Source: Escherichia coli | GTDB taxonomy: Bacteria; Pseudomonadota; Gammaproteobacteria; Enterobacterales; Enterobacteriaceae | Assembly (NCBI RefSeq): GCF_044324785.1 | Contig: NZ_CP172127.1 | DNA length: 64,000 nt | Strand: one strand, 5' to 3' | Part shown: piece after piece, positions 16,277-17,626 of the stretch | Layout: every line of letters begins with the position of its first letter | Numbering within the stretch: position 1 is the stretch's first letter | The notes under the pieces: generated by a model | What the model was told of the DNA's origin: nothing | Seen by the model: the letters and a program-made list of their open reading frames with translations, nothing else | Databases searched by the model: none | Made by a program: the position numbers and the translations under genes

Positions 16277-17626
16277 ATGAATAGTAACGTACTGACACAA
16301 ACTATCGTTACCGGCAGTGACCCGCGCGGGCTGCCGGAATTCAGCGCCATTCGCGAGGAAATAAACAAAGCCAGCCACCCGTCACAGCCTGAGCTGAACT
16401 GGAAACTGGTGGAGTCGCTGGCGCTGGCGATTTTTAAAGCTAACGGTGTGGATTTACACACCGCCACCTACTATACGCTTGCACGGACACGGACACAGGG
16501 ACTGGCGGGATTCTGCGAAGGTGCGGAACTGCTGGCGGCAATGGTAAGCCACGACTGGGATAAGTTCTGGCCACAGGGCGGTCCGGCGCGTACTGAAATG
16601 CTGGACTGGTTTAACTCCCGAACCGGCAATATTCTGCGTCAGCAAATCTCCTTTGCGGAATCCGACCTACCACTGATCTACCGCACAGAGCGGGCATTGC
16701 AGCTTATCTGCGACAAGCTCCAGCAGGTAGAGCTGAAGCGCGTTCCTCGTGTGGAGAATCTGCTCTATTTTATGCAGAACACGCGTAAACGGCTTGAACC
16801 CCAGCCGAAGAGTAACGCAGAGAACGCCGCACAGACCACAGTCAGAACGCTGATTTATGCCCCGGAAACACCGGCATCTTCCACACCAGAAACGGTAGTG
16901 CCTCCCCTGCCCGACCTGCCTGAGATGAAAGTGGAAGTGCGCAGTCTGACAGAGAATCCCCCACAGGCCAGTGTGATAAAGCAAGGCAGTACGGTAAGAG
17001 GGTTTATCGCAGGGATCGTCTGTTCAGTGGCTGTCGCCTCAGCATTGTGGTGGTGGCTGGTCTATCCGGTGCAGCAGCAACTGTTACAGGTTAACGACAC
17101 CGCTCAGGGCGCGGCAACGGTGTGGATGGCCTCACCTGAACTCGAAAACTATGAGCGCAGGCTGCAACAACTTCTTGATACCTCCCCGGTACAGCCGCTG
17201 GAAACCGGGATGCAGATGATGCGTGTTGCCGACAGTCGCTGGCCGGAAAGCCTGCAACAGCAGCAGGCCTCGACACAATGGAATGAGGCACTCAAAACCC
17301 GCGCACAGAGTAGCCCACAGTTGCGCGGCTGGTTGCAGACCCGCCAGGACTTACATGCTTTTGCTGATCTCGTGATGCAGCGCGAGAAAGAGGGATTAAC
17401 CCTTTCCTATATCAAAAATGTCATCTGGCAGGCGGAGCGGGGACTGGGGCAGGAAACACCTCTGGAATCCCTGCTGACGCAGTACCAGGATGCCCGTGCG
17501 CAGAAGCAGAATACAGATGCGCTGGAAAAACAGATTAACGAGCGGATGGACGGCGTGTTAAGTCGCTGGCTGCTGCTGAAGAATAATACGATACCGACGA
17601 TAAAAAAAGACATTGAATTTCAATAA
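16277..17626 (+). CDS. T6SS accessory protein, VasL/TagA-like (ImpA_N domain, membrane anchored)
   Basis: ATG at 16277 (MNSNVLTQ); 449 aa; central hydrophobic helix (IAGIVCSVAVASALWWWLVYPV); sits after tssM as vasL does in V. cholerae. Confidence 0.7.
   Translation: MNSNVLTQTIVTGSDPRGLPEFSAIREEINKASHPSQPELNWKLVESLALAIFKANGVDLHTATYYTLARTRTQGLAGFCEGAELLAAMVSHDWDKFWPQGGPARTEMLDWFNSRTGNILRQQISFAESDLPLIYRTERALQLICDKLQQVELKRVPRVENLLYFMQNTRKRLEPQPKSNAENAAQTTVRTLIYAPETPASSTPETVVPPLPDLPEMKVEVRSLTENPPQASVIKQGSTVRGFIAGIVCSVAVASALWWWLVYPVQQQLLQVNDTAQGAATVWMASPELENYERRLQQLLDTSPVQPLETGMQMMRVADSRWPESLQQQQASTQWNEALKTRAQSSPQLRGWLQTRQDLHAFADLVMQREKEGLTLSYIKNVIWQAERGLGQETPLESLLTQYQDARAQKQNTDALEKQINERMDGVLSRWLLLKNNTIPTIKKDIEFQ

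Follow-up and report, generated by a model that had tools for sequence, protein, structure and literature searches.

The window analysed here, a stretch of 64,000 nucleotides of Escherichia coli DNA (contig NZ_CP172127.1), carries at 16277..17626 on the plus strand an intact open reading frame of 449 codons plus stop, which the ORF list, its translation and the Pfam matches identify as a real gene, referred to below as tagA (VasL-domain or class B TssA-like protein). Its ATG lies 11 nt downstream of the stop codon of tssM (16266), and the start methionine at 16277 is shared by orthologues from E. coli, E. albertii, Salmonella and Pseudocitrobacter, whose products begin with MNSNVLTQT or MSNNVLTQT. 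An upstream GTG at 16187, which overlaps tssM, was also considered as a start codon and was rejected because the orthologues use the ATG at 16277. An antisense ORF of 105 aa (16667-16984) is regarded as a chance ORF. The protein shares 97% identity with P0001, the common allele in E. coli, and the gene is named 'VasL domain-containing protein' by PGAP in E. coli genomes.

The gene is part of a T6SS cluster; the window contains the full T6SS gene set, as does N3, the nearest strain (99.9% identity). The order in N3 is tssB, tssC, tssE, tssF, tssG, tagH, tssJ, tssK, tssL, tssH, vasI, tssA, tssM, tagA and hcp, followed by a short cassette and then by the tRNA-Asp gene aspV, which adjoins dnaQ-rnhA. 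Among the neighbours of tagA in the window we confirmed TssM, Hcp, VasI, DotU/TssL, the FHA protein TagH and a TssA with a VasJ C-terminal domain, as well as tRNA-Asp at 21106-21182; the host cluster is the aspV-linked, Vibrio cholerae-type T6SS of E. coli. The tssA gene, located two genes upstream of tagA (11242..12723, plus strand, as listed among the ORFs, with the true start probably downstream), encodes the long form of the protein with both ImpA_N (E 6e-8) and the VasJ C-terminal domain (Pfam T6SS_VasJ, E 1e-72); PGAP places tssA at the same spot in N3, and its product is the expected partner of TagA. The tssM gene for the membrane complex subunit (12742..16266, plus strand; annotated start in N3 at ~12832) is immediately upstream of tagA, and its product is recognised by NCBIfam TIGR03348 (E 4e-284) and by the IcmF domains of Pfam and has three hydrophobic segments. 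Of 5426 complete E. coli genomes, 2950 are matched by a 1.7-kb query around tagA, mostly at 95-99% identity. PGAP calls frameshifts in tssA of N3 and in tssM of O157:H7 TR01, both of which are intact in the window, and the aspV T6SS may be decaying in some lineages.

Near 17,600, within the last codons of tagA, the GC content falls sharply from about 57% to 30-36% (junction at about 17,590-17,650), and tagA therefore ends the conserved block before an hcp-effector-immunity cassette. The cassette is opened by a copy of hcp (tssD) at 17653..18132 on the plus strand (T6SS_HCP E 1.8e-23, TIGR03344 E 1e-58; GC 30-34%), after which come a 298-aa candidate effector, an LprI-like ORF and tRNA-Asp. The first-pass annotation had described tagA as the last core gene before a cargo cassette; the cassette does come next, at the drop in GC, but TagA is classed as an accessory rather than a core component, and hcp, a core gene type, comes after it. 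In a scan of 16000-21300, promoter and terminator matches were no higher than the shuffled expectation, and no terminator was found in the tagA-hcp interval.

The 298-aa ORF right after hcp (18153-19049, plus strand; GC 30-35%), with further plus-strand ORFs at 19046-19501 and 19498-19854, is intact in the window and is interrupted by a premature stop in N3 and by a frameshift in O157:H7 TR01. It had no Pfam match and no sequence match in the PDB, while its C-terminal part carries the PGAP label 'peptidoglycan-binding protein' and a downstream ORF is LprI/DUF1311-like (Pfam E 2e-3). The two ORFs resemble a cell-wall effector linked to Hcp and its immunity protein, from an uncharacterised family.

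The domain architecture of TagA was derived from Pfam profile searches and from an AlphaFold2 model built on a 67-sequence alignment (mean pLDDT 84). The N-terminal helical domain (residues 11-173; 16307..16795, plus strand), predicted to be the cytoplasmic TssA/sheath-binding module, contains the ImpA_N domain that the first-pass annotation had anticipated in this region (PF06812, residues 12-113, E 8.8e-20; score 71.4 bits, cut-off 26.9 bits). Residues 20-173 are modelled as helical with pLDDT above 95, and the domain matches both the EAEC TssA structure 6rju (phmmer E 1.8e-6) and the TssA N-terminal domain structure 6hs5 (Foldseek E 8.9e-4, prob 1.0). It is the best-conserved part of the family, with a mean identity of 46%. 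The following segment, assigned from the AlphaFold2 model, composition and conservation as a disordered Pro-rich linker (residues 174-238; 16796..16990, plus strand), has pLDDT values of about 45-58 without secondary structure, a Pro content of 17% and a mean identity of 17%, the lowest of any region.

The linker leads to the segment GFIAGIVCSVAVASALWWWLVYPV (residues 242-265; 17000..17071, plus strand), which is the one strongly hydrophobic stretch of TagA, with a Kyte-Doolittle 19-residue maximum of 2.02 and a summed Hessa-type dG of 0.08 kcal/mol, compared with 9.2 for the next-best segment. It is predicted to be a transmembrane segment of the signal-anchor type, and AlphaFold2 models one continuous helix over residues 239-273. 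A single mid-protein hydrophobic helix had been proposed previously and is indeed present, but its proposed position, residues 250-275, was about 8-10 residues too far downstream. The region C-terminal to the helix (residues 266-449, 184 aa, 12.9% Gln) agrees with an earlier description of a Gln-rich C-terminal domain of about 170 residues. This domain is the Pfam VasL domain itself (PF12486, residues 292-434, E 4.3e-23); the match scores 82.4 bits (cut-off 27.3) and spans positions 1-146 of the 147 in the profile. The folded part of the region in the AlphaFold2 model is all-helical and comprises residues 276-435 (17102..17581, plus strand), for which we predict a periplasmic location. The Gln enrichment is family-wide, with 12.1% in the C-terminal region versus 6.7% in the N domain.

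A HMMER search of 1.84 billion cluster representatives identified 896 relatives at E<=1e-3, of which 140 also reached E<=1e-30. Named members of the TagA family occur in Hafnia, Proteus, Pantoea, Moellerella and E. coli, and closer relatives in Salmonella, Citrobacter and Enterobacter. No extra domains were found in the longer relatives, since all 10 of the 10 diverse members scanned have ImpA_N and VasL only. A relative from Proteus mirabilis with 25% identity is also encoded in a T6SS cluster with a VasJ-type TssA. Read-through fusions present in the databases (P0003, P0100 and P0121), for instance a TssF-TagA protein of 629 aa and a TagA-Hcp protein of 618 aa, probably arose from frameshifts or gene-calling errors in draft assemblies.

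Three TagA-like genes were found in EAEC 042. The aspV orthologue (L002, 19026-20384, minus strand) encodes a 452-aa protein with 73% identity to the window protein. The pheU island contains an intact ORF of 455 codons (NC_017626.1, 4884070-4885437), about 9 kb upstream of the aai (Sci-2) cluster, whose product has the same Pfam architecture and aligns with the window protein by BLASTP end to end and collinearly at 27% identity over 459 columns (E 6e-48). From its position, we take this ORF very probably to be EC042_4550, the TagA characterised by Santin et al. in 2018. RefSeq/PGAP splits the same ORF into three 'pseudogene' fragments, one of them labelled as a POTRA domain, and this three-fragment annotation looks like an artefact. 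The third copy, just past the Sci-2/aai cluster (L003, 35659-36813, plus strand), encodes a diverged protein of 384 aa with weak Pfam scores (VasL E 1e-7, ImpA_N E 5e-6).

Topology statistics were compiled for 67 relatives with 23-86% identity to the window TagA. Each has one candidate membrane helix at a conserved position, with a median start at residue 236 and the same placement in about 95% of the 63 full-length relatives; the family median of the summed Hessa-type dG is 0.44 kcal/mol for this helix and 8.9 for the next-best segment. Lys and Arg in the 20-residue flanks average 3.37 on the N side and 1.49 on the C side, with an N-side excess in 56 of 67 proteins, equal counts in 9 and a C-side excess in 2, although neither these counts nor the cysteine counts that follow are independent samples because the relatives are related to one another. 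Cysteine accounts for 137 of 11440 residues in the N domain (1.20%, in 40 alignment columns, 26 of which are singletons) and is scattered over 11 columns of the linker and 15 of the helix, versus 3 of 11850 residues in the VasL domain (0.03%), where it is about 40-fold rarer than in the N domain.

The topology of TssM is established, and TssM hence provides an internal control. Its only two cysteines (ORF residues 195 and 264) are both in the cytoplasmic loop, and its periplasmic domain of roughly 700 residues has 0 Cys, which is the same compartment pattern as in TagA; the cytoplasmic T6SS proteins of the window cluster all contain Cys. With a single span of the membrane, VasL would lie outside, because ImpA_N lacks a signal peptide and must act in the cytoplasm. 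These patterns suggest that members of the TagA family are single-pass, N-in/C-out inner-membrane proteins with a periplasmic VasL domain, a prediction to which we give an even chance. No published topology for TagA or the VasL domain was found in the literature searched, including PMC6745524, PMC7545191 and PMC6450956, and the predicted periplasmic location of VasL is the one point that goes beyond the published accounts we found.

Proteins that combine ImpA_N and VasL with a hydrophobic or transmembrane region have been named TagA, and Schneider et al. (2019) proposed the name TsmA (sheath membrane anchor) (PMC6745524). These class B proteins are found at the membrane, label the distal sheath end and interact with TssA, and their loss leads to over-long, bent sheaths (PMC6745524, PMC6450956, PMC7545191, PMC7896307). 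In EAEC, TagA interacts with TssA and is a marker of the distal end once the sheath is fully extended, and deletion of its gene results in excessive polymerisation with bending and breaking of the sheath (PMC6745524, citing Santin et al. 2018). EAEC TagA also recruits TssA to the envelope and is required for the static extended phase and for contractions directed to the distal end (PMC6450956). V. cholerae TagA, with 19.3% identity to the EAEC protein, is membrane-localised, forms spots at distal sheath ends and prevents over-extension; its overproduction blocks assembly, and the tagA deletion gives over-long, bent sheaths (PMC6745524). The role put forward for the window gene at first pass, in which a TssA-like protein anchored in the membrane captures the distal sheath end, is the one published for TagA from EAEC and V. 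cholerae (PMC6745524, PMC6450956, PMC7545191). A further literature match to 'VasL', in Enterobacter cloacae, concerns a lipase effector and is irrelevant here.

The window protein resembles the Sci-1 TagA of EAEC 042 (EC042_4550 by inference; Santin et al. 2018, Szwedziak & Pilhofer 2019) in its combination of ImpA_N, one hydrophobic helix and VasL, which are collinear over the full length, in its size (449 versus 455 aa) and in having a long VasJ-type TssA partner. It differs in sequence, the identity being no higher than 27%, and in its genomic setting, as the window system is of group 1 with a V. cholerae-like gene order and is not a Sci-1 system. The window tagA directly follows tssM in the operon, whereas the 042 ORF is surrounded by unrelated genes at a distance from its cluster. 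In V. cholerae the large cluster ends with vasI-vasJ(tssA)-vasK(tssM)-vasL, which equals the vasI-tssA-tssM-tagA order of the window, with VCA0121 as the V. cholerae TagA/VasL (Schneider et al. 2019, Stietz et al. 2020). Long TssA usually co-occurs with TagA in phylogenetic groups 1 and 2 (PMC7896307), and the T6SS of EHEC has been assigned to group 1 (PMC10433429). Bernal et al. set the V. cholerae form ('TagAV') apart from the E. coli form by its C terminus (PMC7896307).

From the architecture, family membership, genomic context and helix conservation, all observed directly, we conclude with high confidence that the gene encodes TagA (class B TssA-like, TsmA), an accessory protein of the aspV-linked, V. 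cholerae-type E. coli T6SS. The collinear match to the probable characterised TagA therefore makes it a member of the class B TssA-like (TagA/TsmA) family, and the sequence features of that family, namely ImpA_N, a central hydrophobic segment, VasL, a VasJ-type TssA nearby and homology to TagA, are all found here; the VasL/TagA-like identity given by the first-pass annotation was borne out by the joint presence of ImpA_N, one hydrophobic helix and the Gln-rich VasL domain. That the gene instead encodes a second core TssA, a cap or chaperone redundant with the upstream tssA rather than a membrane anchor, is extremely improbable. ImpA_N is common to TagA and TssA, as the long class A proteins (TsaC; EAEC 6rju, V. 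cholerae VasJ) have a homologous N-terminal ImpA_N, and the NCBIfam TssA model TIGR03362 gives a partial match to the window protein (E 9.5e-24), but this match scores 84 bits versus a cut-off of 230, covers the N-terminal 200 residues only and is not full-length. TssA has Nt2 and VasJ C-terminal oligomerisation domains and is without a hydrophobic segment, whereas the window TagA is without both domains: the VasJ C-terminal domain (PF16989) was not found in it by the Pfam search, and the idea that VasL is a diverged Nt2 or C-terminal domain of TssA was discarded after hhalign comparison of VasL with the TssA of the cluster gave a probability of 0.1. Since a separate, bona fide long VasJ-type TssA is encoded two genes upstream, the gene is a TagA-type paralogue and not the TssA cap. 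It is likewise very unlikely that tagA is decaying or non-functional in this strain. PGAP does call the N3 copy (99.9% identical) frameshifted, and there is a 1-nt indel near the 3' end relative to O157:H7 (alignment AAAAAAAG[A]CATTG); the N3 call follows from the difference in length of this A-run. O157:H7 TR01 has one A fewer, and its frame continues to 469 aa, overlapping hcp, compared with 449 aa in the window and N3. However, the indel lies past residue 443, where the VasL domain is already over (at about residue 435), and the alleles of 449, 450 and 469 aa, of which the 450-aa form with an unrelated tail is the commonest, all diverge after about residue 437 (LLLKNN) in an unconserved low-GC tail (17588..17626, plus strand) that lies at the junction with the cassette. 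Elsewhere the frame is intact and shares 97% identity with the common allele, and we see no reason to regard tagA as damaged.

As to membrane topology, the protein may also perform the TagA function while being monotopic or peripheral on the cytoplasmic face, with ImpA_N and VasL both in the cytoplasm, where VasL would be in direct contact with TssA, sheath or baseplate proteins; this is a tentative but quite possible reading, to which we give somewhat less than an even chance. In the 2018 abstract of Santin et al., TagA is reportedly described as cytosolic and in tight association with the membrane. The literature speaks of TagA as 'membrane-associated' (PMC6450956) or as having a 'transmembrane region', and V. 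cholerae TagA with mNeonGreen fused to its C terminus is both fluorescent and active (PMC6745524), which counts against a periplasmic VasL and fits the cytoplasmic placement. In contrast, the uninterrupted hydrophobic helix of 20-24 residues fits one span and is too short for a re-entrant hairpin, and the positive-inside bias of its flanks is conserved. VasL is nearly free of Cys throughout the family, whereas the N domain, linker and helix gain Cys sporadically and every cytoplasmic protein of the same cluster contains it, a pattern that also argues for a VasL domain on the periplasmic side.

The action of TagA could be explained as follows. The single hydrophobic helix would fix the protein in the inner membrane, and the ImpA_N domain would hang in the cytoplasm from the flexible linker of about 65 residues. 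Its binding would halt sheath polymerisation and clamp the distal end, and the clamped sheath would stay straight and extended until firing, while VasL, if periplasmic, could steady the anchor at the envelope or promote oligomerisation. The TssA binding and the stop-and-hold activity of the window TagA are proposed here by analogy with the EAEC and V. cholerae homologues.

The gene itself is not new, and the annotation adds little because the TagA family and its role are already published. The assignment confirms that this E. coli T6SS is of the 'long TssA plus TagA' type, in which an extended sheath is kept ready for long periods, and it helps in reading T6SS dynamics in those commensal and EHEC-lineage strains in which the aspV cluster is present. 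If the predicted topology is true, the distal sheath anchor would be a transmembrane coupler that joins a cytoplasmic ImpA_N hook on a tether to a periplasmic helical-repeat domain. Such a periplasmic VasL might promote oligomerisation, or it might find support at the cell wall or at the part of TssJLM that lies in the periplasm, and the partners of the VasL domain would have to be sought elsewhere than for a cytoplasmic TagA stuck to the membrane.
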